DNA of 64,000 bases, taken from NCBI GenBank assembly GCA_965248965.1, contig CBDFKZ010000003.1, positions 501,306-565,305 of the forward strand, read 5' to 3'. This document shows positions 29,580 through 64,000 of this stretch, in pieces (the first letter of the stretch is position 1; each line of letters starts with the position of its first letter). The notes under the pieces were generated by a model. It saw only the letters and a list, made by a program, of their open reading frames with translations. It was not told the origin of the DNA and searched no databases. This DNA is from Sphingomonas sp. GTDB taxonomy: Bacteria; Pseudomonadota; Alphaproteobacteria; Sphingomonadales; Sphingomonadaceae. The position numbers and the translations under genes were made by a program.

Positions 29580-30440
29580 TTATCCAGATAACGGCATTCG
29601 CCGCGGCATGGGAAGTGCCGATGCCCGACAAACGATGTCGACCCCGGCGATGGCTCAGGCGACATGCGCTGCGCCCGGGAAAAACATCGCGGCTGATTAT
29701 CGGATCGCCACGCACGCCAAGACCCTATGATCGCCGGCGGAAAGGTGGTAGCGTTCTCAACAAGGGCCGCGTTCGATAAACCAGATTTGGAGCAGAGGGC
29801 GCCCGCCGGCATCAGCCCGGCCTGTCGCACCCTGTCGGAAGTCTGTCTGCAGGGGGCCCGAAGCATGTGCGCACCTATTTCTGTCGCGTCGGTCGGTATG
29901 ACGTCCTGTCTCGAGCGCAGCGTTGCAGGCGCTGGAATTCCGGGACGTCTCGAACGGACTGCGTCTTCGCGGCGCCGGCCCAAGGCGCCCCAATGTTAAG
30001 GCGTTTTTGCGGTGATGCCGACGCAGCTGCGCAGGAATTCGCGTCACGCATGCCGATGCGCGTCGATCATGCTATATATATAGGAGAAACCGTGACGGTC
30101 CCGAAGCTTGGCCGGTACGGCTTAACATAGGTAATTTCCGAAGCTTTTCGCTGCCACCAAGACCGTCTATTCCCAATGATGGACCTAATGTGGCAGGGCA
30201 ATAAAAAGGGGCCGACTTCGTAGTAAAATCCGTTGTCAATCGCGAGTTTAGTCTGAATCGAAACTTGTTACATCGTATTCGGATCTCAACTCATACCGTT
30301 ATACGTATTTATAGATTTACCTCTGTTCCGCCCGTGTTGTATAGTCGATGTAGCAATTGACGAACATGATACATGACTGGCTCGGTAAGCGGGATTAATC
30401 TGTTGAAGAACTTAGGGAATTCAACTTGTTGTGCAGTCAG

Positions 30441-31106
30441 TTGACCAATTGCGAGAAGCCGGTTCAGGTATCGCGAAGCGTCTATGTGATCGACGATAAC
30501 GCTGACGTCCGCAAATCCTTGCACTTCCTGTTATCCGTATCGTCGATCACGGCGTGGCCCTTCGCTACCGCGACCGATTTCATCGAACAGCTTCCCGAGC
30601 TGGTGCCCGGACCCATTCTTCTCGACGTCCGCATGCCGCAGATCGATGGCCTCGAGATGCTGTCGATGCTCAAGGAGCGCGCGGTCGACTGGCCCGTCAT
30701 CGTGATGACGGCGCACAGCGATGTGCGCATTGCCGTCGGTGCGATGAAGCTGGGCGCGATCGACTTTCTCGAGAAGCCGTTCAAGACAGAACTGCTCGAA
30801 AAAGTGCTCGACCAGGCGTTCTCGCTCATCGATCAGGCAGACGGCACGCTCCGCCTGCGCGCAGAGGCGCGCGAGCGTTTTGACCGGCTGTCGCGGCGCG
30901 AACGCGAGGTCATGGCCAGCCTTGCCGATGGTGCGCCGAACAAGGTGGCCGCGCGCGAGCTGGGTCTCAGCGCCCGCACGGTCGAGATGCACCGGGCAAA
31001 TGCGCTGGGCAAGCTGGGCCTGAAGAGCATCGCCGAAGTCGTGAAGCTGGAAGTCGCGGCCGGTTTTCTCGACCGCTCCCTCAGATCGCAGAACAGCCTC
31101 AACTAG
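30441..31106 (+). CDS. FixJ/NarL-like response regulator
   Basis: VIDD, LLDVRMP phospho-Asp, FLEKPF, LSRRERE...NKVAA...TVEMHR LuxR HTH. Confidence 0.93.
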   Translation: MTNCEKPVQVSRSVYVIDDNADVRKSLHFLLSVSSITAWPFATATDFIEQLPELVPGPILLDVRMPQIDGLEMLSMLKERAVDWPVIVMTAHSDVRIAVGAMKLGAIDFLEKPFKTELLEKVLDQAFSLIDQADGTLRLRAEARERFDRLSRREREVMASLADGAPNKVAARELGLSARTVEMHRANALGKLGLKSIAEVVKLEVAAGFLDRSLRSQNSLN

Positions 31107-31152: not shown

Positions 31153-32343
31153 TCAAGGAAATACAGCGGCAACGATGCCGGCGACGTCCTGGGCGTCGAG
31201 TTCGTCGATGTTGACTGCCATGTCGGGCACGACGCTGTACCCTGTCGTAGCCCCCGAGCGGTCGAGCGTGACGCTCATGATGCGATAGGCGTCGCCGAAG
31301 CGGATCGCGGCAAGGCTGCCCACTGTGGCCGGACGGTCCGGGTCGGCAATCACGATCGTGCTTGGCGGCAGGCCGGCGCCGAGCGTGGCGCGGCAGACGC
31401 GCAGTGCAAAGGCCCGCGGCCCCGCACCGGCCGGCGTCTCGACAATCGCGCCGGTGGGCTCGGTGGCAATCAGCCCGCCCTGCAAGGGTGCGCCGAGCAC
31501 GGACAGGCGGCGAGGCTCGGGCGACATCGGCGCGTCGGATGAGCGCGGCCTGTGCTCGACGCGTTGAGGTTTCGCTTGCTGAAGCGCGGACGCCTGCCGA
31601 GCCGGATCGTCGGATTCGCGGGCGGCCGCGCGCAACTCCAGGCGCAGCTCGGCGATCTTGTTGCGCGTACGCGACCATCTTGCTTCCGGATCGGTGATCG
31701 TGGCCACGAAAGTGTCGAACTCACCCATCAGATAGCGTTCGGCGAGCTGCGCGACCAGCGTCTCGGTATCGGCCACGCCGAACAGACGACAGATCGATGC
31801 GAGTGTGGCATCGTTCCAGCGGGTCAGCGGCTTCTGTGCATTTTCGAGGCGAGAGAGAATGACGGCCGGAAGACCGAATTCCTGGTCCAGTCGGGCAATG
31901 GTCAGGCTCCGGTCCTTGTTTCGCTGCCACCGCAGGGCCGCACCGAGCAGAACGGCGTTCCGTTCGTCCTGAACGTCCCAACTTCGCGGGTCGTGAAAGG
32001 GGTCCGCCCAGGCCGCGATGTCGAAATCGGGCGCATCGATGTCGATCAGGAGATGCTCGGGGGCGATGCCGAGCGCGTCCGCGATGCGGATCAGTTCGTC
32101 GGCCCGTGCCGAGACTTCGCCCCGCTCGATCTTCGAAAGCCGGATGTAGGGAATGTCGGCCAGCTGATTGCTGAGCGCCATGAGCTTGTACAGTCCGCGC
32201 GACTGCCGATGCTCACGCACGCGGTTGGGAAAGACGAAGCCGCGATATCGGTCCGGGCAGATTTCCTCGAGCGAACGTGCCGTTGCCAGTTGCGCGTCAA
32301 GCGCGCGCGGCGACCGGCCCGTCCCTCGGCTTGCTGTTGCCAT
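31153..32343 (-). CDS. Regulator with two XRE HTH domains and a degenerate S24-like C-terminal domain
   Basis: NRVREHRQSRG...RLSKIERGE; LGAALRWQR...ILSRLENAQ; AFALRV...IVIADPD. Confidence 0.8.
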   Translation of the reverse strand: MATASRGTGRSPRALDAQLATARSLEEICPDRYRGFVFPNRVREHRQSRGLYKLMALSNQLADIPYIRLSKIERGEVSARADELIRIADALGIAPEHLLIDIDAPDFDIAAWADPFHDPRSWDVQDERNAVLLGAALRWQRNKDRSLTIARLDQEFGLPAVILSRLENAQKPLTRWNDATLASICRLFGVADTETLVAQLAERYLMGEFDTFVATITDPEARWSRTRNKIAELRLELRAAARESDDPARQASALQQAKPQRVEHRPRSSDAPMSPEPRRLSVLGAPLQGGLIATEPTGAIVETPAGAGPRAFALRVCRATLGAGLPPSTIVIADPDRPATVGSLAAIRFGDAYRIMSVTLDRSGATTGYSVVPDMAVNIDELDAQDVAGIVAAVFP

Positions 32344-32441
32344 TGCTCGTAACCCCGGATCGCGAAGGGGCCACCCGTCCCCCTGCCTGAGCCGATGATA
32401 TAGGAGCAATCGTGAGAATTCAATTGACGCTCAATTAGTTG

Positions 32442-32933
32442 CTAATGGAGCACTTCGCTGGCTGGTGGCGCGACCAGATTTGCCCATACGCTGTTGGCGG
32501 CAAAGGGAAGCAGACAGGTCGTCGGACACAGCCCCGATTGGTGGCGCGCCAGCCAGCCGGGTGAGAGCGGCGAGGGGTTGTCCGATGAGAACGCAACCCC
32601 GCCGCCGTCGGTAAAAATCCCCAGCGCCGGTGGCAGTGCGTTCACGGGCCAGCGGCGCGCGATTTCGGCGAGCAGGACCACGGCGGCATCCTCCAGCGCG
32701 GCAAGGCTCCAGCTGAGCGGGTCGCCGGAGGAAATCGGCGCCAGATCGACGACGCGACAACTGCCGTCCCATGCGCTCGTGGTCAGCCTTGAGCGGTCGT
32801 CCGTCCCGGTAAGGGTGGCACTCAGCAATATGGCGCTGTTTGCCGCGAGAACCGGTCTTGCATGGAGGGCCAGGCGCTCGGCGATCCGGACCAACGCGGT
32901 GGGGGCACCGGGGAGCTTGCGCGCCCTGGACAT
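32442..32933 (-). CDS. Hypothetical protein
   Basis: 163 aa ORF filling the gap between the sigma and XRE genes, same strand; no motif recognised. Confidence 0.65.
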   Translation of the reverse strand: MSRARKLPGAPTALVRIAERLALHARPVLAANSAILLSATLTGTDDRSRLTTSAWDGSCRVVDLAPISSGDPLSWSLAALEDAAVVLLAEIARRWPVNALPPALGIFTDGGGVAFSSDNPSPLSPGWLARHQSGLCPTTCLLPFAANSVWANLVAPPASEVLH

Positions 32934-33068
32934 CGGTGCGCCGTGATGCGGGACGCTCCACCCGTTGGACGACTTCATGCGGCGCTTATCCCTTATATCA
33001 ACAATGCAGTACTGCGCCTGCTGTCACGCAAGGGGAGCACCGCAAGTGCGGGTGCTCCCAAACGGCCG

Positions 33069-34169
33069 TCAATGCCGGGCGGCGCTGCCCGGCGCGTTTC
33101 CGCCCAGCCGCTTCATGGCGGGAACCGGAGCGGGATTGGGGGCAATCGAGTCGATATCGACAAGCGAGGGATGCGACGCGGCCACCACATTGGCAGGTAT
33201 GGCAATGACGCGCGACAGCGTGTTGTGCGGCTGGCCTTCGGCAGGCAGCATCGACACCTTGGGCTGCTCGCCGGACACCTTGGGCGCACGCGTGCGGGCC
33301 GGCTTTGCGTAGCTTTTGCCGTATTCGGCCATTACGGCGAACTGCGGCTCGCTGGCGGCCAGTTCGGCGATCGACCGCGAGGCGCGCTTGGTGATCTGGC
33401 GGACACGTTCCTTCGTGACTCCGGTCGTCTCGCCAAGCTGGTCAAGCGTGTCGGCCTGGAAGACCCGACGCTCGACGATTTCGCGATCGCGATCCAGCTT
33501 TTGCTCGAGCTTTTCGAGTTCTTCGGGGCAGATGCCGTGCGTCCGCGTGCGGCGGAGCAGGGCGGCCGCGCGTTCGACCGGATCGGTCACCGACAGGCGT
33601 TTTGCCCGCGGCCGCTTGCGCAGCTGGTCAAGCGCGGCGGCGCGCTGATGATTGATATAGCCGTCCACGAGCGACCGGGTCGCCGCATGGGCAAGATAGT
33701 CGGACGCAGCGGATTCGGTGCGCGCCAGCGCGCATTCGTCCTCGATGATGGACTCGAGCGTGGATTCCTCGCCGTCGGCGCCCGACGTGACCGAGTGAAG
33801 GGAGACCGTCGTCGCCGCGACCTTCTTTGCCGAGGGACGCTGGTCGGTCATGACCCGGAAGCGAAGCGACTGAAGCTCGCCGCGGATCTGCCAGTTGACG
33901 AAGGTCGTGAAGAGTGCCTTTTCGGGGTCGTAACCCTGGATCGCCCGGTGCACGGCGATGGCGCAGCACTGCTCGGCGTCTTCCCAATGGGCCGTCAGGC
34001 CGTACTGGCGGATGAAATGGCGGATGCGCGGTGCGATCAGCTTGAGGATCGAGGCGAACGCCCGGTCCACGGCGGCACGCTGCCGCGCGCTGGACACGTC
34101 GTCACCCTTCGGCATGCTCTCGATGACTGCCGCAACGGCCGCCTCCAGCGCAATCGTGGTCTTTGACAT
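33069..34169 (-). CDS. Divergent sigma70-family RNA polymerase sigma factor
   Basis: Region 2 EDAEQ...VHRAIQGYDPEK...FTTFVNWQIRGE; region 3.2 VSLHS...STLESIIED; region 4.2 TLDQLGETTGVTKERVRQI. Confidence 0.85.
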   Translation of the reverse strand: MSKTTIALEAAVAAVIESMPKGDDVSSARQRAAVDRAFASILKLIAPRIRHFIRQYGLTAHWEDAEQCCAIAVHRAIQGYDPEKALFTTFVNWQIRGELQSLRFRVMTDQRPSAKKVAATTVSLHSVTSGADGEESTLESIIEDECALARTESAASDYLAHAATRSLVDGYINHQRAAALDQLRKRPRAKRLSVTDPVERAAALLRRTRTHGICPEELEKLEQKLDRDREIVERRVFQADTLDQLGETTGVTKERVRQITKRASRSIAELAASEPQFAVMAEYGKSYAKPARTRAPKVSGEQPKVSMLPAEGQPHNTLSRVIAIPANVVAASHPSLVDIDSIAPNPAPVPAMKRLGGNAPGSAARH

Positions 34170-34338
34170 GGTTAACCCCCAGAAAAGAAAAGCAGGTTGG
34201 CCCCGCGCCAACCGTCGCCCTCACCACGTCTTTCTGGCATCGGAGAGTTAATAGGAGTGTTATCATCCTATACGAAAATATACGTAACCATCCTATAAAA
34301 GCATGGTGCTGAGGATGTTTAGCGGCGAGTGGACCCGG

Positions 34339-35295
34339 TTAAGACGCGAAACGCCCCGGCGTTACGTGGCGATCGACATAGTCGAGCAGCCACGACCGAT
34401 GGGCGCTGGCGGCGTCGCCTGTCGCCGCAATCCGGCGGTTTGCGCTGGCCGTGCCGACCTGGGCATCGAGGAGGACCCTGGCGCGTCCACTGTCGAGCCC
34501 GCCCTTCAGGAAGCGTATCGCGTCGCCGGTCCCCAGGTGATGGCCGATATAGGCGGCGCGCGCCACCGTGGCGACGTCGCCGCCGATGGCGATCCCCGCA
34601 TTCTTCAGCTTTTCGACGCTCCGCAACGCATAGTCGGCGGTCGCGTTGATCGATGCGGATCCATCATAGCGGAGCGCCAGCAGCGCCGAGCGGGCAGCGG
34701 GGAGAATGCGTCCGTCACTGCCGAGCCAGCCCTGTCGACTGGCAACGCCGTTCAGCCAGGTACCCGCGCGCTCGGCCTCGCTCTGCCAGGTGCCGGCCAG
34801 AAACTGGCCGAGGCCGGCTGCGCTCGAGCGCGGATTGCGCGACGTCGTGTTCCATTTCCCGTCACAGTTCTTGCCCGCTTCCGCATCGACGATGGCGGCC
34901 AGGGCGGCAGGCGGCAGACCCGTGCGCTCTGCCGCGGCATGGATCGTGTCGCGATAGGCACTGTTGGGACCCAGGCCCGCAACGGGCGCGCTCGTCGAGG
35001 CGGCAACCGGCGACCCGGTCGCAACGGGAATCTCCGCCGCGGCAGCATCGTCTTTCACGGGATCGGCAGGCGTCGCTGCCGACGCTTTCGTCGACTGCGG
35101 CCCGAGCAGCGACAACAGCGAATCGAGATTGAACGTGTCGCAGCGCTGCGCCGATTGCGCCTGGTCTTCCGCATCGGATTCGCTGCCGAGTGCGGCGCGC
35201 CACAGACGCGCCGTTACGTCGCTCTGCGCCTGGGAATAGATGAGCGCGGCCTTTTCACTCGGGCTCATGCGGCTGAGATCGTTGGCAATCAGCAT
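34339..35295 (-). CDS. Lytic transglycosylase/muramidase, possible FlgJ-like rod peptidoglycan hydrolase
   Basis: AIVDAE catalytic Glu and SSAAGLGQF lysozyme-like motif; overlaps the fliJ stop. Confidence 0.75.
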   Translation of the reverse strand: MLIANDLSRMSPSEKAALIYSQAQSDVTARLWRAALGSESDAEDQAQSAQRCDTFNLDSLLSLLGPQSTKASAATPADPVKDDAAAAEIPVATGSPVAASTSAPVAGLGPNSAYRDTIHAAAERTGLPPAALAAIVDAEAGKNCDGKWNTTSRNPRSSAAGLGQFLAGTWQSEAERAGTWLNGVASRQGWLGSDGRILPAARSALLALRYDGSASINATADYALRSVEKLKNAGIAIGGDVATVARAAYIGHHLGTGDAIRFLKGGLDSGRARVLLDAQVGTASANRRIAATGDAASAHRSWLLDYVDRHVTPGRFAS

Positions 35296-35744
35296 GCGGC
35301 CGGCCCTTCAAGACGCCTTTGCCCCGCGCCGACACGATTTAGCCGGTTGAAACGCGCGGCCGAGAAGTCGTCGATCTGATCCTGCTCGGCCTTTGCCAGC
35401 ACAAGGCTCGCTTCGCTTCGAAAGCGATCGGCGGCGCCTTCGATAGCGGCCATTTCGCCAAAGGCCTTCGCCGCTTCCTGGCGAAGGCTGCCGAGCCGTG
35501 TTCCCACGGCGACGGCGTCGCGCACGATTTCCGTGCGCGCTGCGCGCATGCGCGCGCCAAAGGCCGGGGCCGCGCAGCGCCAGTCGCTGGCGGCGAGAAG
35601 TGCCTCGTCACGCAAAGAGGTCTCGATCGCCTGATGTCTTTGGCCGAGGATTTCGAGCTGATTCAGTTCGGCAGCGATCGACAGGCGCATCGCGTCGATC
35701 TGGCGCTGCAGCAGCCGCAGCACGGCATCATAGGGCGTTTTCAT
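35289..35744 (-). CDS. fliJ: Flagellar export protein FliJ
   Basis: Coiled-coil protein coupled to fliI, with EQDQIDD C-terminal motif. Confidence 0.7.
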   Translation of the reverse strand: MKTPYDAVLRLLQRQIDAMRLSIAAELNQLEILGQRHQAIETSLRDEALLAASDWRCAAPAFGARMRAARTEIVRDAVAVGTRLGSLRQEAAKAFGEMAAIEGAADRFRSEASLVLAKAEQDQIDDFSAARFNRLNRVGAGQRRLEGPAAC

Positions 35745-37066
35745 TCGGCGACCTCGAGCAGGGCCGCCAGTCGGGCGAAGCTGTCTTCGGGGGAGCCGCG
35801 GTCCTGCTTGGTCTGCGTCAGCAGTGCCTCGATCTGCGGTGCGAGCGCAATGGCGCGATCGACCTCTGCGTTCGCGCCGGCGGCATAGGCCCCCAGCCGC
35901 ACGATCTCTTCCATGTCGCCATAGGTCGACAATATCGACCGCGCAGCGAGGCGGAGCCGGTTCTGGTCGTCGTCGAGCGCGCCGGGAAGCGTGCGGGAAA
36001 CCGACTTCAATATGTCGATCGCCGGGTAGCGGCCGCGCTCGGCAATGCGTCGCGTAATGACGATATGCCCGTCCAATATGCCGCGTACGGCATCGGCAAC
36101 GGGCTCGTTATGGTCGTCGCCATCGACGAGCACGGTGAACAAGCCGGTTATCGAGCCCTGGCCCGGCAGTCCGGGGCCAGCGCGTTCGAGCAGGCGCGGC
36201 AGCTCGGCAAAGACGGTAGGTGTGTAGCCCTTGGTCGCGGCCGGTTCGCCGCTGGCGAGGCCGATCTCGCGCTGAGCCATGGCGAACCGGGTCACCGAGT
36301 CCATCAGGCACAGGACATTCAGCCCCTGATCGCGAAAATGTTCCGCAACCGCCATTGTCGTCCAGGCAGCCTGGCGGCGCATCAGTGCCGGCTCGTCGGA
36401 CGTCGCCACGACGACGACGCTGCGTGCCAGCCCTTCGGGTCCGAGGTCGTCCTCGACGAATTCCTGAACTTCACGGCCCCGCTCGCCGATCAGGCCGATG
36501 ACGGCGACGTCGCATCCTGTCCAGCGGGCAAGCATGGACAGCAGGACCGACTTGCCGACGCCGGAGCCGGCAAACAGACCCAATCGCTGCCCCTGGCAAA
36601 GCGGCGCAAAGATATCGAGGGCGCGGACTCCCGTTGCCACATAACTGCCGACGCGGGCGCGTTGCGCCGCCGGCGGCGGGGAGGCCTTGATGGGATAGAG
36701 GTCATGGCCGGGCAAGATCGCTCCCTTGCCGTCGATGGGGTTGCCGAGCCCGTCGACCATGCGGCCGAGCCAGGCGGCACCGGGCCGCACCGAAAAGCGG
36801 CCGGCGATCAGGTTTGCGCGCGCACCCGACATGATGCCCTGGGGGTCGCTGAAGGGCAGGCAGTGCGCCACGTCGCGATCGAGCCCCGTGACCTCGGCGG
36901 CGACAATGCCGTCGGCGGCAACGACGTCCACGTGCGACCCGATCTGGGCCGCCCCGGTCAATCCCTCGACCTCGATCAGGGCGCCCCGCACGCCGATCAC
37001 CCGACCGAAGCGCTGGTCGGGCACGTGTTCCCGCATCGTGCGCGCGGCAGCAGCAAGTGACCTCAT
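35741..37066 (-). CDS. fliI: Flagellar export ATPase FliI
   Basis: GLFAGSGVGKS, LIGERGREV, MDSVTRFAMAQREIG, LDGHIV. Confidence 0.97.
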   Translation of the reverse strand: MRSLAAAARTMREHVPDQRFGRVIGVRGALIEVEGLTGAAQIGSHVDVVAADGIVAAEVTGLDRDVAHCLPFSDPQGIMSGARANLIAGRFSVRPGAAWLGRMVDGLGNPIDGKGAILPGHDLYPIKASPPPAAQRARVGSYVATGVRALDIFAPLCQGQRLGLFAGSGVGKSVLLSMLARWTGCDVAVIGLIGERGREVQEFVEDDLGPEGLARSVVVVATSDEPALMRRQAAWTTMAVAEHFRDQGLNVLCLMDSVTRFAMAQREIGLASGEPAATKGYTPTVFAELPRLLERAGPGLPGQGSITGLFTVLVDGDDHNEPVADAVRGILDGHIVITRRIAERGRYPAIDILKSVSRTLPGALDDDQNRLRLAARSILSTYGDMEEIVRLGAYAAGANAEVDRAIALAPQIEALLTQTKQDRGSPEDSFARLAALLEVAE

Positions 37067-37074
37067 CGATCTGG

Positions 37075-37479
37075 TCAGGCAGCCTGGGGAACGGCGCGTT
37101 CAAGCGCCGTCGTCTCATAGTCGATCAGCACGCGGCAGTCGGCGAGGGCGCGATAATAATTGCCCGTTGCCACCTTGTGGGCGAACCGCGCGCACAAGGC
37201 CTTGGCCTCGAGGGATTCGAGCGCGCCGAGAAGGTCGCTCAGATACTGAATGATCGCATCCTGATGCTTGGTCTGCGACTTGGGGTCGATGTAGGCCATC
37301 ATGCAGGAAAAATAGAGCCGCCGCGCCGGTGTCACGGCGTCTTCCGCGGACATGACCTCGCGACCGCGCAGAAGAGAGACATTGTTCTCCACGATCAGGT
37401 CGGTGCGGCCGACCGCGCGCATCACGGCGCCGTTCACGATCATCTTCTCACCGTCGCGCAGGGAAATACGAAGCGTCAT
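37075..37479 (-). CDS. flbT: Flagellin translational regulator FlbT
   Basis: MTLRISLRDGEKMIVNGAV...TPARRLYF...YYRAL. Confidence 0.92.
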   Translation of the reverse strand: MTLRISLRDGEKMIVNGAVMRAVGRTDLIVENNVSLLRGREVMSAEDAVTPARRLYFSCMMAYIDPKSQTKHQDAIIQYLSDLLGALESLEAKALCARFAHKVATGNYYRALADCRVLIDYETTALERAVPQAA

Positions 37480-37639
37480 CACAGGTCCTTTGTGGCTTAG
37501 TGGTCTTATAGGATGGTGGCGCCCCGCAGGCGGCGCTTTGCCGAATTTTTGCCAAATGCCCCGACCCGGCAAAGTTCATCCTACAATTAAAGTCACGAGC
37601 GCCACCCGACGCTCAAATGCTTATTGCCGGAGAACCTTC

Positions 37640-42054: not shown

Positions 42055-43926
42055 TCAGCCAACCGGGGCGGACGGGACGGCCGCCGTATCGACGAGGTCG
42101 GCGATGTCGCCGGCTGGGCTGGCGGACGGGATCGCAGCCATGGCGGTCGTCATCGTGGCCGGGTCGATCGTTCCGATCGTACCCGTCAGCGTATTGAACG
42201 TCGCGGCAGTGGGCAGTTTGGCGAAGGCGGCCACGTAACGGTCATGCAGGCGCGCCAGCGCGTCCTCCCGACCCAGCATGGCCAGCGCAATCGCGTAGCG
42301 CAGGATCTTGGCCTGAACGACCTCCGTAAGCGGCTCCGACTTCCCGAGCGACGTTTCGGTCACATCGACAAGCGCCTTCCAATCGCGACGCTTCCAGTAG
42401 AACTCGCCCCGAATGGCATCGCCGTCGGGTACGTCCTGAAGGACGGCAAGCGCTTCGTTCGCGCGTCCCAGCTTGTCGAGCGCCACGGCTTCGACGCGGT
42501 GGCGCGCCCAGAGCATCTCGTCGGGATAGACGTTCCCTTCGGTCTCGCGGATCGCATCGAGCGCCCGGGCCGGTTTTCCTGCCAGGATGAACAGCGTGGC
42601 GACACGTGCCGACAAGGGTCCCTGGGCGACGTCCTGCGTCCGGACGACAAGCTGGTGTTCGAGCAACTCGGCGGCGCGTTCGTAAAGCCCGGCCGTCTGA
42701 AGGCGGTCGGCAAATTGCGAGACGAGCAGGTCGCCGGCCGCCCCCGCCGGCGACAGGTCCCGATAATCCCAGTAGAGCCCGGCGACCTGATCGAGCGGCA
42801 TGGGGTTCTGGGGCGACAGCGTCGCGGCAAGTACCGATTGAAGTTCGGCAAGCAGCGTCGAGCGATTGCTGCCCCCCCCGAAATAGCGAAAAAGTGTCGC
42901 GCCGGCTTCGAGCGTGCCCCGCATGTCGCCGCCCAGCTTCGACAGCGTGTAGGAAAGTTGCAGGGCGCGCTGCTCGATGTCGTCGCCGCGCCACAGGAAC
43001 CGGATCCGTTTCAGCCGGGCCATGGTGTCGATCGGAATACGACCCGTGCCTGCCTTTGCCTCGAGCCGGCTAAGCTCGGCATCGAGGCGCTGGCCATAAT
43101 CTCCCGACTTGCCGACGCGCGCGAGCAGCAACTGTCCGGCTGCGATATTGCCGCGCGCGACCATCGCCCGGCCGCGCAGCAAATTCGCGGCAGGATCCTT
43201 CTCGGGCATCGTCCTGAGCAGTTCGATCACAAGCGCCGGATTGCCGGTGCGGGCTGCGCTGGCCGCTACCGCCAGAAGAAAAGGCGCGCGAACGGCGCCA
43301 TGTCGCCGATTGAGCGCTGGTATGGCGCAGTTGACCTGGCGGAGTGCGAGGACGTCGTCGCCATTTTCGGCGAAGGCACGCATGCGCCACGCGCAAGCCT
43401 CGGGATTGGTGGCAAGGGCCTCGCTCGACAGGGCGGTGACCGCGGCGGCGGGGCGCCGCAGCTGGGTCAGCGTTGCGCCGAGCGCGAGGTCGAAATTCGG
43501 CACCAGCGCGATGTCGGGCTCGTCCTGTTGCATGACCTCGAGCGCGCCCAACGCCTCGGCGGCGCGGCCGCGACCGATCTGGCTTCGCGCATAGTCCCAT
43601 CGGGCCGCCTGCCGCGTGGCCGGCGTCGCGTTCGTCAACCCTTTGAGGGTCGCATCGTAACTGAGGACTTTCCACCCGCCGGGGAGGGATATCGCGGGCT
43701 GTCCGGCAAATTGCGGCGCAAAGGGCGCGACGTTGCTGGGGCGGCGGAACGGGGCAAACGTAGCCTGTGCCGCATCGGCCGGAACGTCGTCCTTGGCAGC
43801 AGCGGGACCGGCTGCCTGCGGCGCGGTCGTCGCCACGGGTGCCGCGGCCGTTGGAGACGGGTCGGCAGCCGGCGGCGCGCCGGCTGTCGTCGCCGCAATC
43901 GCCAGGAGCGAAATCGCCGAGCGCAT
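42055..43926 (-). CDS. Exported TPR-like flagellar accessory protein
   Basis: Signal-like N-terminus, Pro/Ala linker and long helical repeat-like body; within the flagellar cluster. Confidence 0.75.
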   Translation of the reverse strand: MRSAISLLAIAATTAGAPPAADPSPTAAAPVATTAPQAAGPAAAKDDVPADAAQATFAPFRRPSNVAPFAPQFAGQPAISLPGGWKVLSYDATLKGLTNATPATRQAARWDYARSQIGRGRAAEALGALEVMQQDEPDIALVPNFDLALGATLTQLRRPAAAVTALSSEALATNPEACAWRMRAFAENGDDVLALRQVNCAIPALNRRHGAVRAPFLLAVAASAARTGNPALVIELLRTMPEKDPAANLLRGRAMVARGNIAAGQLLLARVGKSGDYGQRLDAELSRLEAKAGTGRIPIDTMARLKRIRFLWRGDDIEQRALQLSYTLSKLGGDMRGTLEAGATLFRYFGGGSNRSTLLAELQSVLAATLSPQNPMPLDQVAGLYWDYRDLSPAGAAGDLLVSQFADRLQTAGLYERAAELLEHQLVVRTQDVAQGPLSARVATLFILAGKPARALDAIRETEGNVYPDEMLWARHRVEAVALDKLGRANEALAVLQDVPDGDAIRGEFYWKRRDWKALVDVTETSLGKSEPLTEVVQAKILRYAIALAMLGREDALARLHDRYVAAFAKLPTAATFNTLTGTIGTIDPATMTTAMAAIPSASPAGDIADLVDTAAVPSAPVG

Positions 43927-44144
43927 TACTGTAGACCCAGCTTCGGCAGCAGCGAGATACCGGCGGCGCCGATCATGCTGCCGATGAGAAAAATCATGGC
44001 ATAAAGCACGCCCGACGAAGAAGTTTTGGGGGAAACCGATGCCTCGCCTGCCGCCGGCACGACGTCGTCGGCGCGGCGGACCGGCACCGCAGGTGTCGAG
44101 CTGTCGACCAGCTTGACGCGGGCCGGCCTCTGATCTCGGCTCAT
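43926..44144 (-). CDS. Small single-pass membrane protein
   Basis: 72 aa with a C-terminal TM helix; TAATG overlap with the TPR gene. Confidence 0.7.
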   Translation of the reverse strand: MSRDQRPARVKLVDSSTPAVPVRRADDVVPAAGEASVSPKTSSSGVLYAMIFLIGSMIGAAGISLLPKLGLQ

Positions 44145-44220
44145 GGATGTCCCTTCTGTGCTTGATATCCTCTATTATAGGGGGAGCGAGGCGCGCGCGT
44201 GCGCCCCGCCCGGAGTTCCT

Positions 44221-44625
44221 GTGACTAAAAAGACCCTCTTCAAGGCCGCGTCGCTGCTCGCTCTGGCCTCGACCGGCAGCGCCAGTGCGGCGGACAATGG
44301 CCCCCCCGACCGGCCCGAACCGCAGTTCGTGCCCATGCCGCTGATCGTCGTGCCGATCGTGGGTGCCGACAGCATCGAGGGATCGCTGCGCTTCAAGCTC
44401 GTGCTGTCTGCAAAAGACGAAGCGGGGAAGGAACATCTGACCGAGAAATTGCCGGTTCTGCGGGCTGTTTCCGTCGCAGGCGCCATGGAGTTCGCCCGCC
44501 TTTTCGCGTCGGCGCAAAGACCCGTGGACGTGAGCAAGCTGAGCAGCGACCTGACGAAGGCGCTGCGAACGGCCGACGCCCAGGTCGACCGCGTGCTGAT
44601 CGTCGAGGTCTCGGCCGTCAGCTAG
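44221..44625 (+). CDS. Second FliL-like protein
   Basis: Signal peptide, QFVPMPLIVVP, FKLVL, VDRVLIVEV FliL-like fold pattern; GTG start after GGAG. Confidence 0.6.
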   Translation: MTKKTLFKAASLLALASTGSASAADNGPPDRPEPQFVPMPLIVVPIVGADSIEGSLRFKLVLSAKDEAGKEHLTEKLPVLRAVSVAGAMEFARLFASAQRPVDVSKLSSDLTKALRTADAQVDRVLIVEVSAVS

Positions 44626-47115: not shown

Positions 47116-47254
47116 CGGCTTGCCTTTCGTTCCACGGACGCAGGAGAAATTGTTCCCGCCGCCCCAATTCATCTCGTTCCGTCTATTATAGGAGAGGTAC
47201 CGGGCAAATTCTGCCTAGTGCCATCGGAACGAAGATTTATCTGGAGCGAACGAG

Positions 47255-50125: not shown

Positions 50126-50267
50126 CTTAAATAAAACTGGGTGTTGATTTTGGTTAGCCTGTAATCCTTCCCACAATGAAGGGCGAGCCGGAAGACTTCG
50201 GTGCGTCGCGGGCCAGCGCTTCTGGCCCAGGTCGCAGAAGCGACCTTTCATCCAGAAGGACAAGATC

Positions 50268-52226: not shown

Positions 52227-52264
52227 CAGATCGAAGTTTCTTCGGGATCGCATTCACAAGAAAC

Positions 52265-52297
52265 AAAAAAAACAGGCCGGAAACGGCCTGTTTTTTT
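52265..52297. terminator. Bidirectional intrinsic terminator
   Basis: A8-CAGGCC-GGAAAC-GGCCTG-T7. Confidence 0.92.
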
Positions 52298-52380
52298 ATG
52301 TCGGGATAGGGACGGCGGGGAAGGTGGGAACCCGGAAGCAGTGGGGGCGGGGTGGGGGTGGGGGATGCTTCCGGGCTCCT
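52265..52380 (-). ncRNA. Candidate small RNA (or flgD 3' UTR element) with a C-rich loop
   Basis: TATAAT at 52386-52391 (minus strand); 14-bp stem starting at the predicted +1 with a 25-nt C-rich loop; U8 terminator. Confidence 0.55.
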
Positions 52381-52447
52381 GTTTCATTATAGAAAGGCGT
52401 CTTGCGTTGCGGCCTTTCTGCAAAAAAACTTTCTTACTTTCAGATGC

Positions 52448-53137
52448 TTACGCTGCAGAAGCGAGGCCGATCAGCGTGTTGATCGGCAATTGGGCACCGT
52501 TTACGTCGAGCGAAATTCCGCCGTTTTCCGCGCTGATGCCCCCGACCGTGCCGACGCTGTGGATCGTTACCGGCACGGTCGCCCCAGCGGCATTCCGAGC
52601 GGTCATCGACAGAGTGTAGGCACCTGCCGGCGCCTTGTCGCCATTGGCGAGCGTGCCGTCCCAGCTGAAGCTGCCCTGGCGACCGCCAAGGTTCACGTCG
52701 CGCGTGTCGACCACGGCGCCCGCGGCGTTGGTGATCTGCATCTTGCCCGAAGCTACGGCGACGTCCGCCGAATAGGTCCAGCTCGCCGGCTTCGCGCCCA
52801 GCCCGGCCACCGCGGAGTTGAATTCGGCGTCCTTGCCGATGAAGCCCGATGCCTGGGCCATGGTCTGGTTCGTCAGGCTGGCAAGAATGTCCTTCAGCGT
52901 CGACGATTGCTGGACGGTCTGTTCGACCTGCGAATATTGCACGAGCTGCTGGGTATATTGCGCGCTGTCCATGGGGCTCAGCGGATCCTGGTTCTGCATC
53001 TGCGTCGTCAGAAGCTTCAGGAACATGTTGAAATCAGCGCCGATTGTGCCCTTCGGCGATGTACTGGCAGTCGCCAGCGACTGCAGGCCGGTGCTCGCCG
53101 AAGCCGGAAGGCTGGCTGAGGGAGAGATGAGTGTCAT
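52448..53137 (-). CDS. flgD: Hook capping protein FlgD
   Basis: FLKLLTTQMQNQDPLSPMD, QYSQVEQ, FSWDG. Confidence 0.96.
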   Translation of the reverse strand: MTLISPSASLPASASTGLQSLATASTSPKGTIGADFNMFLKLLTTQMQNQDPLSPMDSAQYTQQLVQYSQVEQTVQQSSTLKDILASLTNQTMAQASGFIGKDAEFNSAVAGLGAKPASWTYSADVAVASGKMQITNAAGAVVDTRDVNLGGRQGSFSWDGTLANGDKAPAGAYTLSMTARNAAGATVPVTIHSVGTVGGISAENGGISLDVNGAQLPINTLIGLASAA

Positions 53138-54520: not shown

Positions 54521-54590
54521 GCAATGCCTCTCATCGGGGCGCGCAGGCCCTTGTCTCTCTTATAGACGGCTGGCGCTGCAGACGGCCGAT

Positions 54591-56682: not shown

Positions 56683-58023
56683 TCAATGCGCCGGCTCGAC
56701 GGCAATGCCGGCCTCGATGAATGTCCTCAGCTTGTTGCGCATCGTGCGCACCGAGATGCCGAGGATCGTCGAGGCCGTGGTGCGGTTGCCGCCGCAATGT
56801 TCGAGCGTGTGAAGGATCAGGTCGCGTTCGACATCGTCGACGGTGCGACCGACGAGGGACGCGGCCGGATCTCGGCCGATCGTGGGCTTCGATGCCCCCA
56901 GAGGCTTGCCGTCGGCCGCGACGATCGCGCTGCCCTGGATCCGTTCGCCCTGGGCAAGCAGGACGGCGCGATGGATCACGCTTTCGAGCTCGCGGACATT
57001 GCCGGGCCACTCATGGCGGGTGAGCGACTGTATGGCATCGGGCGCGAAGGGACGCGCGGCCAGGCCGTTCGCGGCGGCGAACCGCGCGCCGAAATATTGC
57101 GCGATGGCGATGATATCGTCGCCACGTGTGCGTAGCGGCGGTATCGCTACGCGGACGAGGGACAGGCGCGTAAGCAGGCTGCCGAGGAACTGCCCCTTGG
57201 CGACGAGGGCGTCGAGATCGACGGACGTGCCGGCGATGATGCGCGCGTGCGACATCGGGGCGCCGCCTTCGGCGGACCTCGCTTGCTGCACCTGGAGCAT
57301 CGTCAGCAGGCGCGCCTGGGTGGCGAGCGCCAGCGATCCGATTTCGCGCAAATAGATGGTGCCGTACCGGGCGTCCTCCAGCCCGCCACGGCGCGGCGCG
57401 ACGGCACCGGCGAAATCGCCGGCGCCATGGCCGAACAGTTCGGAGTCGATGATGTCGCTGCTCGTGCTGGCGCAGTCGACGGTCAGGAAGCGTCCGGTCC
57501 TTGCCGATGCGGCGTGCACGGTGCGGGCGAAGATTTCGCGACCGCTGCCGAGCTCCCCGCTGATGATAATGGGTGCGCTCGACGGCGCCATGGCAAGGCC
57601 GAGCGACAGCGCGCGACGCAGTTCCGGGTCGTCGCCGACGAGCCGGGCGCCATGCCGGGCCACCGACAGGATTGCCGCTGCAATGAGATCGGCCTGCGGC
57701 GGCAGCGGGACATAGTCGCGCGCGCCGCCCCGAATGGCGGCAACGGCGCGGTCGGCCGACGCGTCGATACCGCAGGCGATGACCGGGACGGCGATATGTT
57801 CGGCGCGGAGTTGCGCGATGAAGCGCGCAACGTCCTCGGCGACGTCGATCATGACAAGATCGCTGCCCGTGTCGCGCAATTTGCGAAGCGCCGTGCCGGC
57901 GTCGTCCGCCATGACGACATTGGCGCCGGTCTCTCGGGCCATCGCGGCGGCGGTGCGGAATTCGCTGCCGGGCGCGCCGACCAGAAGCATGTGAATGGAT
58001 CCGGTAGCCAGCACCACGCTCAA
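56683..58023 (-). CDS. flbD: FlbD-like regulator with degenerate AAA+ domain
   Basis: Receiver + AAA+ + Fis HTH (ILGISVRTMRNKL), downstream of fliN as in Caulobacter; catalytic motifs altered. Confidence 0.88.
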   Translation of the reverse strand: MSVVLATGSIHMLLVGAPGSEFRTAAAMARETGANVVMADDAGTALRKLRDTGSDLVMIDVAEDVARFIAQLRAEHIAVPVIACGIDASADRAVAAIRGGARDYVPLPPQADLIAAAILSVARHGARLVGDDPELRRALSLGLAMAPSSAPIIISGELGSGREIFARTVHAASARTGRFLTVDCASTSSDIIDSELFGHGAGDFAGAVAPRRGGLEDARYGTIYLREIGSLALATQARLLTMLQVQQARSAEGGAPMSHARIIAGTSVDLDALVAKGQFLGSLLTRLSLVRVAIPPLRTRGDDIIAIAQYFGARFAAANGLAARPFAPDAIQSLTRHEWPGNVRELESVIHRAVLLAQGERIQGSAIVAADGKPLGASKPTIGRDPAASLVGRTVDDVERDLILHTLEHCGGNRTTASTILGISVRTMRNKLRTFIEAGIAVEPAH

Positions 58024-60031: not shown

Positions 60032-60105
60032 CGGGCTGCAAAGCCCGTCAGATCATTATAGGAGGAAGCGGTGGGAAAAATTTGCCGGGTAGGAAATTCT
60101 TGCCG

Positions 60106-61863: not shown

Positions 61864-61947
61864 ATAATGAAGGTTAACGCGTCATCACGGCGGCACATGC
61901 GTCTATTATAGGAAGGAGAAGACGCGCGGAGCTCAAGCGGTGATCTT

Positions 61948-64000
61948 ATGACGGTAAATCTTTCAAACGGCCTGGCCGCCCTGTCGATGCTGTCGAACAC
62001 GAACAGCTATGCCGATTTTGCAACCCCGGCAGCGCCGGAATCGCTTGCCGTCCGCAAGGCGAAGGCTCAGTTCACGCTTGCGCCCACGACCCCGCCCTGG
62101 AAGCAGCCTGCGACGAAGACGCCCGAAGCTTCCCGTATCACGGCGATCAAGCAGCTCAGCACCATCATCGACAATACCACGACGTCGCCCACTGCCGGCT
62201 CGCGCGATGTCCAGACTGCGTTCACAACCTACAAGGCGCTCGACAAGCTGATGCTGCTGGCGACGGCCGCGTCGCGGACGACGACAACCGACAGCGAGCA
62301 CGTCAGCCTGCAGACGGCATTCGCCAAAGGGCTGAGCGATCTGCAGCAGTTCCTGGGCCAAGCCGGGTCGGACAAGGTCAATTTGTCGTTCGGGCTTCCC
62401 ACGCGCCGGGCGGAGACCGTGCCGATAACGCCGTCCGATCCGGTCAAGTTCACCGGCAAGGGCATCGTCGACGCGCGCGACGCGCCGCTGCCGCTCGACG
62501 GAACCGAAGTTTTCAAGATCTCGCTCGACAAGCCGGGTGCGAGCGACACGCTGACCATCGACATGTCGAAGGTCGTGCTGCCGGCAACGCTCGATCGATT
62601 GTCGAGCGCCTTCAACGATGCCATCAAGGCGATCGAACTGCGCAAGCCCGATGGCTCGGTCGTGCTCGACGACAACGGCAATCCGACGCCCCGCTGGCTC
62701 GTTCGCTTCCTGCCCGACAAATCCACGGGCAAATGGGGGCTGTCCGTGCAGGCGCCGAACGGCGCCGAGCGCGTCTCGATCGATCAGGTCGGTGCGCCCG
62801 ACGCGCTCGTCGTCGCCACCGGGCAAACGGCGGTGGGCGCTGCGCCGGTGACGCAAATGCTGCGCTTCAACGACGCTGCCGGCGACCTGGCCCGCGATCC
62901 GCTGGCGACGATCGCCGCGACCGACACCGCGGGAACGGCGCGTGCGAAGCTGACGGCGACGAAGCCCAAAACCCTTCCCGGCACCACGCCGCCGCCGGCA
63001 CCCGGTCCCCTGCAGGCCGCAACGACCACGCAAGCGATCACGACCGACGCTGCCGGTAACACCTATCTCGTCGGCACGACGGCCGGCGACCTTCAGTCCA
63101 ACCGGTCGAGCGGTTCGGAAGATCTCTTCCTGACGAAGCTCGACAGCGAAGGTGCCGTGGTCTGGCAACGCAGCCTCGGTGCGCCCGCGGGCGCAAAAGG
63201 TGCAGCCATTGCCGTCGCTGCCAATGGCGATGTCACGGTTGCGGGCACGGTGACGGGCATGCTGGATGGGCAGAGCACCGACGGCGACATGGTCGTTGCG
63301 CGCTACGCCGCAAATGGCGACGAGAAGTTCGCCACGGTGTTGCAGTCGGCAGGTCCCGACAGCGCCAATGCGCTGGCGCTGGGCGCCGATGGCTCGGTCT
63401 TTGTCGGCGGCAAGGCCGCGACCGGCGGCGGCGATGCGTTTGTCGCGCGCCTCGACGCATCCGGCAAGGTCCAGCAACGCCGCACGATCGACGGCGGCGG
63501 CAGCGATTCCGTCACCGCGCTGGCCGTGGACGGCGACGGCAATTTGCTTGCCCTCATCAACAGCAACGGCGTGGCGCAGCTGCGGCGTCTGAGCTCGGAC
63601 GCGCTTGGTACCGAGCTCGGTAGCCTTTCGCTCGGCCAGGCCGATGCGCGCGCACTCGCCGTGGCGCCCGATGGCCAGATCGCTGTCGCCGGCGCAACCA
63701 GCAAGGCGCTGAACGGCGCACAGGCGAATTCGAGGAGCGACGGGCGCGACGGCTTTGTCACGCGGATCAACAGCGCGCTTGGCAACGCCACGACCACCTA
63801 TATTGCAACGCCCGCCGACGACCAGGTCGACAGCGTCGCGTTCATGAACGGTGCGATCTATGCCGGCGGCCGCACCGCCGGGGCGATCGAAGGCAACCGC
63901 ATCGGCTCGGTCGACGGCTTTGTTGCCCGGCTCGACGCCGCCAGCGGCGGCATTCAGGACGTGACCCAATTCGGCCAGCAGGCGATGTCGAGCGAACCCG
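61948..64000 (+). CDS. Large SBBP beta-propeller repeat protein, FlaEY-like (runs off the window end)
   Basis: Frame from ATG 61948, translated at its start and around 63.0 kb, with no stop seen: TTPPW N-terminal motif and repeats such as ITTDAAGNTYLVGTT...DLFLTKLDSEG. It is absent from the ORF track, consistent with no stop inside the window. Confidence 0.8.
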   Translation, partial: MTVNLSNGLAALSMLSNTNSYADFATPAAPESLAVRKAKAQFTLAPTTPPWKQPATKTPEASRITAIKQLSTIIDNTTTSPTAGSRDVQTAFTTYKALDKLMLLATAASRTTTTDSEHVSLQTAFAKGLSDLQQFLGQAGSDKVNLSFGLPTRRAETVPITPSDPVKFTGKGIVDARDAPLPLDGTEVFKISLDKPGASDTLTIDMSKVVLPATLDRLSSAFNDAIKAIELRKPDGSVVLDDNGNPTPRWLVRFLPDKSTGKWGLSVQAPNGAERVSIDQVGAPDALVVATGQTAVGAAPVTQMLRFNDAAGDLARDPLATIAATDTAGTARAKLTATKPKTLPGTTPPPAPGPLQAATTTQAITTDAAGNTYLVGTTAGDLQSNRSSGSEDLFLTKLDSEGAVVWQRSLGAPAGAKGAAIAVAANGDVTVAGTVTGMLDGQSTDGDMVVARYAANGDEKFATVLQSAGPDSANALALGADGSVFVGGKAATGGGDAFVARLDASGKVQQRRTIDGGGSDSVTALAVDGDGNLLALINSNGVAQLRRLSSDALGTELGSLSLGQADARALAVAPDGQIAVAGATSKALNGAQANSRSDGRDGFVTRINSALGNATTTYIATPADDQVDSVAFMNGAIYAGGRTAGAIEGNRIGSVDGFVARLDAASGGIQDVTQFGQQAMSSEP

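Follow-up and report, generated by a model that had tools for sequence, protein, structure and literature searches.

A divergent sigma-70-family protein and a shared promoter-like element in the flagellar gene cluster of Sphingomonadales

What does a sigma factor gene of no familiar class do inside the flagellar cluster of a sphingomonad? Sigma factor hierarchies (sigma-28, sigma-54) are classically illustrated by flagellar regulation, for which the alphaproteobacterial model derives from Caulobacter. The window analyzed here, a stretch of 64,000 nucleotides (nt) from Sphingomonas sp. (contig CBDFKZ010000003.1, positions 501,306 to 565,305), carries a flagellar cluster of the Caulobacter type, and a preliminary description had singled out one open reading frame (ORF) within it, at 33069-34169 on the reverse strand, as a divergent sigma factor; we refer to it as the sigma gene. 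A 2022 study of this cluster type in Sphingomonas sp. WG found fliA and flhDC absent, assumed a Caulobacter-like CtrA/FlbD/sigma-54 scheme, and left the sigma gene unmentioned (PMC8921679), and our literature search for a sphingomonad flagellar sigma factor or motif found no description of the gene. Our reading, to which we assign a probability of roughly 0.55, is that its product is a sigma factor dedicated to motility, now in charge of promoters that in Caulobacter use sigma-54, and that it acts through a promoter-like element, TCCTATAAT.

The ORF was confirmed in the window. We took the ATG at 34169 as its true start because all homologues open with MSK(T/I)T, a GGGGG ribosome-binding site lies 5′ of this codon, and a TTG at 34211, the other candidate, lies inside a hairpin. 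The ribosome-binding site of the sigma gene is a run of G in the loci examined. The gene and the parts of its 366-residue product lie as follows.

33069-34169, reverse strand: sigma-70-family gene, 366 residues plus stop
33855-34049, reverse strand: region 2 (residues 41-105), from family alignments and a profile comparison with the PDB
33534-33620, reverse strand: basic, low-confidence linker (residues 184-212), from the structure model and residue counts
33318-33527, reverse strand: region 4 (residues 215-284) with the recognition helix TKERVRQI, from Pfam, profile, and model
33069-33317, reverse strand: disordered Ala/Pro-rich tail ending ...ARH, from model and composition

Region 4 matches Pfam Sigma70_r4 (PF04545) above its cut-off (E = 1.7e-8; 34.3 bits versus 24.1). 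Region 2 scores below the cut-off of Sigma70_r2 (PF04542; 17.7 bits versus 24) and was aligned to RpoS and SigA at 30 bits by the family profile. Both strings quoted in the preliminary description are present, namely FTTFVNWQIRGELQS (residues 87-101, with its IRGE-type end and W93) and TKERVRQI (residues 252-259, within the region 4.2 string TKERVRQITKRASRSI, residues 252-267), and region 4.2 is indeed RpoD/RpoH-like and not FliA-like. In region 2, D64, Q67, F87, and T89 are invariant across the family and W93, R96, and E98 nearly so. The most highly conserved residues in the family alignments (D64, Q67, F87, T89, W93, and R96) align with the core-binding and DNA-melting residues of sigma-70, presumably D403, Q406, F427, T429, W433, and R436 in Escherichia coli numbering. 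The long basic insert said to precede region 4 corresponds to RKRPRAKRLSVTDPVERAAALLRRTRTHG (residues 184-212, with 7 Arg per 30 residues), and the Pro-rich tail, put at about 80 residues, measures 82 (14 Ala, 12 Pro).

No NCBIfam model reached its cut-off, in agreement with the claim that the protein fits no standard class. The top match was the generic sigma-70/extracytoplasmic function (ECF) model TIGR02937 (39.6 bits versus 42.9), and the models of specific classes fell far below theirs: RpoH (TIGR02392, 33 versus 323; NF005143, 34.4 versus 241; NF005693, 30 versus 315), FliA/WhiG (TIGR02479, 24.9 versus 189.6), RpoS (26.4 versus 394), and RpoD_Cterm (29.4 versus 354). Membership of the ECF group is contradicted by the TIGR02937 score and by the spacer of about 110 residues between regions 2 and 4. 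The protein has no Response_reg match in Pfam, which excludes it from the PhyR type. Against the PDB, the family profile matched RpoS (1.6e-14), SigA, RpoH (2e-11), and FliA (6e-9), and no ECF sigma factor was among its best 60 matches.

An AlphaFold (AF2) model built from an 80-sequence alignment has a mean predicted local distance difference test (pLDDT) score of 82, with values above 90 for residues 1-185, low values in the basic linker, and very low values past residue 285. In a Foldseek search of the PDB, the top 20 matches were all sigma factors (probability 0.99-1.0), led by full-length SigA, SigB, WhiG, and FliA over about 340 columns at a probability of about 1.0; the TM-scores are low, since the domains of a sigma factor are arranged differently in the free and the holoenzyme-bound state. 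The middle of the model is atypical, with one long helix instead of a clear three-helix sigma-3. Taking profiles and predicted fold together, we conclude that the product is a real sigma-70-family protein with predicted sigma-2 and sigma-4 domains and an atypical middle, belonging to no curated subgroup. Binding of core RNA polymerase, which would proceed through the conserved region 2, and promoter-specific initiation are putative functions. Databases label many members "sigma factor-like HTH DNA-binding protein" (NCBI; HTH, helix-turn-helix) and often "sigma-32" (JGI).

The C termini of the family vary with lineage: sigma proteins end in ...RH, ..LH, or ..MH in Sphingomonas and in ..LAA or ..PAA in Novosphingobium, Sphingosinicella, and Erythrobacteraceae (loci compared include L028, L053, L058, L063, and L064; window positions 33069-33080). 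The ..LAA and ..PAA endings resemble ssrA/ClpXP tags and hint, faintly, at proteolytic control, to which a disordered tail ending in His or in an ssrA-like ..LAA might expose the protein. The neighboring protein p178 always ends in ..LH (32442-32450), and the ends of both proteins may be C-terminal degrons.

How fixed is the gene in its place? An exhaustive HMMER scan of 1.84 billion representative proteins returned just 266 at E<=0.001, and a scan of 185,579 species genomes found relatives in 287 species, the best 80 of which all belong to Sphingomonadales (Sphingomonas, Novosphingobium, Stakelama, Sphingosinicella, Sphingosinithalassobacter, and Erythrobacteraceae). Locus counts below are drawn from these best 80 loci, mapped by tblastn, and motif counts given as fractions from the 63 to 64 unique ones. 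About 65 of the 80 share one gene order, with p820 (a large protein described below) on one side, next flgL-flgK-flgE running leftward, and then flbT-fliI-fliJ-318aa-sigma-(p178)-XRE running rightward, where 318aa stands for a gene of 318 codons. The same order recurs in two complete genomes and in a 48%-identical metagenomic relative, and a 408-kb Erythrobacter aureus plasmid (L090) holds the entire flagellar cluster in that order, sigma gene included. Across Sphingomonadales, the gene is a fixed part of the alpha-type flagellar cluster in which the preliminary description saw it embedded. The narrow distribution of the family, its p178-XRE partners, the shared promoter motif, and the degenerate FlbD go beyond what that description could show. 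In one locus (L075), the sigma-p180-XRE trio stays linked at a distance from the flagellar genes, which indicates that the three genes form a module; its two other members in the window are these.

32442-32978, reverse strand: p178, fast-evolving companion of the sigma gene, ending ...LH, from synteny and homologue searches
31153-32409, reverse strand: XRE-type protein, encoded by the third gene of the module, with a likely start at 32343 and two HTH regions, from domain reading and synteny

A sigma factor of a mobile element could also ride beside a flagellar cluster and play no part in motility. Homologues on a Sphingosinicella plasmid amid phage- or plasmid-like genes would fit that explanation, as would distant relatives of 500 residues with transmembrane and SPOR-like fusions beside ParB and helicase genes. 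It sits poorly with a slot between the 318-residue-protein gene and p178-XRE that is stable across genera, down to 48% identity, and with the motif that the sigma gene shares with flagellar promoters, and we consider it highly improbable. The distant relatives themselves (about 500 residues; P0201, P0208, P0232, and P0276) combine a sigma-like N terminus with a predicted transmembrane segment and a SPOR-like C-terminal domain; one of about that length (L086, 8001-9512) has ParB_N, UvrD, and helicase genes as neighbors on a contig of low GC content, a setting suggestive of a mobile element or phage. In P0141 and P0122, a FliF or MotA N terminus is fused to sigma; these are probably chimeras of assembly or gene calling, yet both partners are flagellar. 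On present evidence, the sigma lineage seems restricted to the Sphingomonadales and plasmids of theirs, with some distant relatives from metagenomic sources besides.

The second line of evidence is the element itself. The window contains 8 copies of the heptamer TATAGGA, which is TCCTATA read on the opposite strand, where 0.48 would be expected; every copy is intergenic and falls between 30 and 62 kb. TATAGGA as a forward-pointing motif was dropped, since comparison of the flgE/flbT intergenic region across loci gave its complement, TCCTATAAT, as the functional orientation. This element begins 39-43 nt 5′ of the flbT ATG in 43 of 63 unique loci (55 of 63 with a relaxed pattern), and TCCTACAAT begins 52-83 nt (mostly 52-72) 5′ of the flgE start in 37 of 64. 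Information reaches about 2 bits at CCTA.AA, the TCC prefix is conserved as strongly as the hexamer, and nothing is conserved at the expected -35 position upstream of the motif in the flbT and flgE alignments across loci. Strict matches number 170 in 1.5 Mb of loci versus about 6 in first-order Markov simulations; 42 precede flbT, 37 precede flgE, 24 lie upstream of the sigma gene, and 8 precede p178, while most of the others fall just past the sigma stop (before p178), after the XRE gene, or before motA, methyl-accepting chemotaxis protein (MCP), fliL, and GGDEF/EAL genes. In the window, TCCTATAAT precedes fliL, fliF, fliG, and the XRE gene, and variants precede fliK, p178, p820, and the flagellin gene. 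The copies placed individually are listed here.

37506-37513, reverse strand: TCCTATAAg, element of the flbT-fliI-fliJ-318aa operon, from motif comparison
37579-37587, forward strand: TCCTACAAT, element of flgE-flgK-flgL, from motif comparison
47186-47193, reverse strand: TCCTATAAT before fliL-fliM, adjoining the palindrome GGCAAATTCTGCC (47203-47215), from the motif scan
54559-54567, reverse strand: GTCTATAAG, variant before fliK-flgD, from the motif scan
60056-60063, reverse strand: TCCTATAAT before fliF, with an FlbD-type half-palindrome at 60074-60086, from the motif scan
61906-61913, reverse strand: TCCTATAAT before fliG-fliH, from the motif scan
50169-50177, forward strand: TCCCACAAT, one-mismatch variant before the flagellin gene, from the motif scan
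32398-32405: TCCTATAT, motif copy at the XRE gene

The housekeeping part of the window, 30 kb long (secY, rpsM, rpoA, glnBA), has no copy of the motif, and all six perfect copies of TATAAT in the 64 kb lie inside the flagellar cluster. Because the motif lies near motility genes, is missing from those 30 kb, and keeps company with a TATAAT found in the cluster only, it marks a motility regulon and not a general -10 element. A further copy, GCTATATATATAGGAG at 30060-30090, sits within a (TA)n run in a gap of about 850 bp that has no assigned gene and extends from a 5-oxoprolinase-like gene to a LuxR/FixJ-type response regulator gene (30426-31106).

Which factor reads the element? The sigma protein would recognize TCCTATAAT (or TCCTACAAT at flgE) as an extended -10-like element and would require no -35 box. 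The competing account accepts a working sigma factor but has TCCTATAAT read by RpoD together with activators (CtrA, FlbD, XRE), the sigma protein serving a subset of genes, late or condition specific, or something unrelated. The core of the motif is, after all, the textbook sigma-70 -10 hexamer TATAAT, activator-type palindromes fill the would-be -35 space, sigma paralogues occur outside flagellar contexts, and a report cited within PMC8921679 names CtrA as the master regulator of motility in S. melonis. A plain RpoD hexamer, however, would not lead one to expect a TCC prefix that matches it in conservation, nor a motif that is missing from the housekeeping intergenic regions of the window and limited to motility genes in the 80 loci. 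The sigma, p178, and XRE genes moreover bear the motif themselves, which is usual for self-regulated alternative sigma operons. We therefore regard reading by RpoD as rather unlikely and retain the dedicated motility sigma factor as our working interpretation.

Promoter signals of sigma-54, by comparison, are missing from the cluster. No sigma-54 -24/-12 site (TGGC-N8-TGC, TGG-N8-TTGC) was found in the flagellar intergenic regions of the window; sigma-54 promoters were rejected as a candidate, the -24/-12 patterns being no commoner than chance in the window and none of them flagellar-intergenic. The FlbD-type protein of the cluster also departs from the sigma-54 pattern.

56683-58023, reverse strand: FlbD-type enhancer-binding protein with GDFAGA replacing GAFTGA, from alignment with ZraR and NtrC1

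The threonine of GAFTGA is required for sigma-54 contact, and it is missing in 118 of the 120 closest sphingomonad FlbD orthologues, most of which have GAFPGA. FlbD orthologues lacking this threonine are still labeled "sigma-54-dependent" in databases. Loop-less enhancer-binding proteins such as Rhodobacter capsulatus NtrC operate with the sigma-70-type holoenzyme. At flbT and flgE, the place of a -35 is taken by a palindrome, GGGCAAAATTTGCCGGG, about 24-41 nt upstream of the motif, and the palindromes at fliF and fliL lie closer to the motif and overlap the -35 region; we take them to be of the FlbD type from their position and from known ftr sites. FlbD might thus directly activate or repress TCCTATAAT promoters as a proximal co-regulator, a mode of action that fits the loss of its sigma-54 contact motif.

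The control region of the sigma gene itself is more intricate.

34170-34338, reverse strand: upstream control region of the sigma gene, from motif comparison across loci

In the window, two reversed copies (TATAGGA) occupy 34266-34272 and 34291-34297 of this region, and a forward variant, TCCTATTA, occupies 34249-34256. A hairpin spans 34195-34213, and a TTAACC abuts the sigma ATG. The hairpin looks like a terminator, yet shuffled sequence folds as well as the leader does (z=-0.2), and this candidate was dropped. Many genomes have a forward TCCTATAAT after the stop codon of the gene for the 318-residue protein, 205-243 nt before the sigma ATG. Among the 63 unique loci, 41 carry a CtrA half-site-like TTAACC(AT) element upstream of sigma, 40 carry a forward variant TCCnTTAA(A)GG, and 32 carry one or two reversed copies (ACATATAGGA) at about -95 of the sigma start. 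Full CtrA boxes (TTAA-N7-TTAA) gave 0 matches in the window, so that only the half-site-like TTAACC can be claimed. These arrangements suggest that sigma may autoregulate through the motif copies upstream of its own gene and that CtrA may sit above the sigma gene via the half-site-like element; the reversed copies might be competing or divergent binding sites with negative feedback, or an operator.

An operator would also suit a sigma-like regulator or mimic that does not bind core polymerase; such a protein might repress or activate at TATAGGA/TCCTATA sites, or serve as the decoy of a PhyR-like partner switch. Region 2 scoring under its Pfam cut-off, the long helix in the atypical middle, the NCBI label quoted above, and operator-like inverted repeats (TATAGGA-N9-11-TCCTATT) upstream of the sigma gene all lean this way. 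Yet the positions aligned with the sigma-70 residues for beta-prime coiled-coil binding and DNA melting (D64, Q67, F87, T89, W93, R96) are the most conserved of the family, the structural genes bear a single, strictly oriented motif whose distance to the start codon is fixed, the behavior of a promoter and not of an operator, and the protein has no receiver or other switch domain. We judge such a mimic improbable.

A bolder version would have the whole Sphingomonadales hierarchy rewired, with sigma taking the place of sigma-54, and of direct control by CtrA, at practically all flagellar and chemotaxis promoters, FlbD acting proximally on a sigma-70-family holoenzyme, and sigma itself gated by CtrA, by the reversed copies, by an FlgM-like p178, and by a degron. 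This extension we hold as possible but doubtful.

Several observations weigh against even the narrower proposal of a dedicated motility sigma factor. The link between sigma and motif is inferred; the -10 assignment of the putative element follows solely from position and resemblance to TATAAT, which a housekeeping sigma factor could read too; and region 4.2 keeps RpoD-like -35-contact residues, though no -35 box is conserved. Sequencing runs that contain the S. elodea locus, stored as contigs, have flat depth and give no usable transcript ends, and no RNA run turned up for the window. The motif copies directly upstream of sigma are mostly reversed, which a dedicated motility sigma factor leaves unexplained. 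The loci are mutually related, so that motif counts are not independent. No fliA gene was found in the flagellar cluster, which speaks for the proposal, but that search was confined to the cluster, and fliA or rpoN may lie elsewhere in these genomes. Second sigma copies occur outside flagellar contexts in six loci (L045, L046, L077, L078, L080, and L082), and plasmid p1 of Sphingosinicella sp. BN140058 (L091, 8932-9930) carries a 55%-identical homologue, likewise outside a flagellar context, whose neighbors (hypothetical, restriction, RNA-ligase, and ung genes) are phage- or plasmid-like. Neither the TCCTATAAT motif nor any enrichment of it was seen in the plasmid region near this copy, which thus provides no independent test of the motif.

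Around the sigma gene, the cluster has the expected Caulobacter-type content: FlbT, FlbD, flgE-flgK-flgL, fliL-fliM, flgF-flgG-flgA-flgH, a flagellin gene, flgD-fliK-flhA-flbD-fliN-fliF, and fliH-fliG. Housekeeping genes (secY, adk, rpsM, rpsK, rpoA, glnB-glnA, map) fill the left 30 kb of the window. Upstream of sigma on the same strand lie flbT (37075-37473), fliI (35741-37066), a fliJ-sized ORF (35289-35744), and the gene for the 318-residue protein (34339-35295). This bears out the placement of sigma directly downstream of flbT, fliI, fliJ, and a muramidase gene; the name muramidase is plausible and unproven, as the 318-residue protein has no Pfam match, and its orthologue in Erythrobacter aureus is annotated as a "peptidoglycan-binding protein". 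On the other side, p178 has no Pfam match and only 13 detectable homologues, and its AF2 model (pLDDT 47) is too poor for a fold search; speculatively, it is a candidate partner or anti-sigma factor.

Three further features of the cluster deserve mention. The protein p820 (42055-44517, reverse strand, 820 residues) has no Pfam domain and adjoins flgL in most loci; its longest ORF has CCCTATAAT about 340 nt into the reading frame, so that translation probably starts farther downstream. Together with a second large Pfam-less protein (61948-63999, forward strand, at least 683 residues), p820 flanks the flagellar operons. After the flgD stop at 52448, an element at 52258-52391 on the reverse strand begins with a TATAAT and continues with a 14-bp stem, whose loop of 25 nt is rich in C (UCCCCCACCCCCACCCCGCCCCCAC), before a C-rich tail and a strong terminator. 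Its minimum free energy is -48.2 kcal/mol (z=-9.65 versus shuffles), it matched no Rfam family, and its C runs are anti-Shine-Dalgarno-like; it is a candidate small RNA or structured flgD 3′ untranslated region.

If sphingomonads do use the product of the sigma gene as their motility sigma factor, there is a third flagellar sigma factor, not orthologous to the other two, and FlbD would be an enhancer-binding protein reused with a sigma-70-family holoenzyme. Sigma and motif would then form a control layer overlooked in published descriptions of sphingomonad flagellar clusters, and "sigma-54 dependent" annotations of these clusters would mislead for a large order of environmental and industrial importance. 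The predicted promoter motif also eases mapping of the regulon.

How does this arrangement compare with known systems? A flagellar alternative sigma factor is a known concept; what is new here is one that is not an orthologue of FliA and has a different promoter logic. The likeness to FliA (sigma-28) lies in an alternative sigma-70-family factor encoded among flagellar genes and proposed for motA, MCP, and flagellin promoters, in an IRG(E/A)-like region 2.4, and in a possible small, partly disordered partner encoded nearby. Orthology, however, is contradicted by the model score (24.9 versus 189.6 bits) and by the RpoD/RpoH-like region 4.2, and sigma is about 120 residues longer, with its basic linker and disordered tail. 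The sigma-28 consensus is TAAA-N15-GCCGATAA; TCCTATAAT is unlike it and also precedes early genes (fliF, fliG), not late ones alone. Among the models of specific classes, those of RpoH score best (30-34 bits, aligned across residues 43-281). The RpoH -10 element is C-rich before TAT (CCCCATAT, or CYTAT in alphaproteobacteria) and not unlike TCCTATAAT. The RpoH scores are nonetheless far under cut-off, the motif promoters have no CTTGAA-type -35, the genomic context and C-terminal tail are different, and no RpoH-box motif was noticed on reading the sigma sequence by eye. With ECF (group 4) factors, sigma shares TIGR02937 as its top match and a probably self-regulated gene followed by a small uncharacterized one. 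Between regions 2 and 4, sigma has about 110 residues where an ECF factor has a short linker, and the motif promoter lacks an ECF-type -35 AAC. The hierarchy of Caulobacter crescentus (CtrA, then FlbD/FliX with sigma-54, then FlbT/FlaF) shares gene content and order of the same type (flbT, flbD, fliF-fliN-flbD-flhA). The window differs from it in having neither -24/-12 promoters nor TTAA-N7-TTAA, an FlbD without the GAFTGA threonine, an extra sigma gene, and a shared -10-like motif. Caulobacter FlbD activates hook genes and represses fliF at ftr sites, and the FlbD-type palindromes here, distal at flgE and flbT and overlapping at fliF, mirror that activation and repression (PMC3930126).

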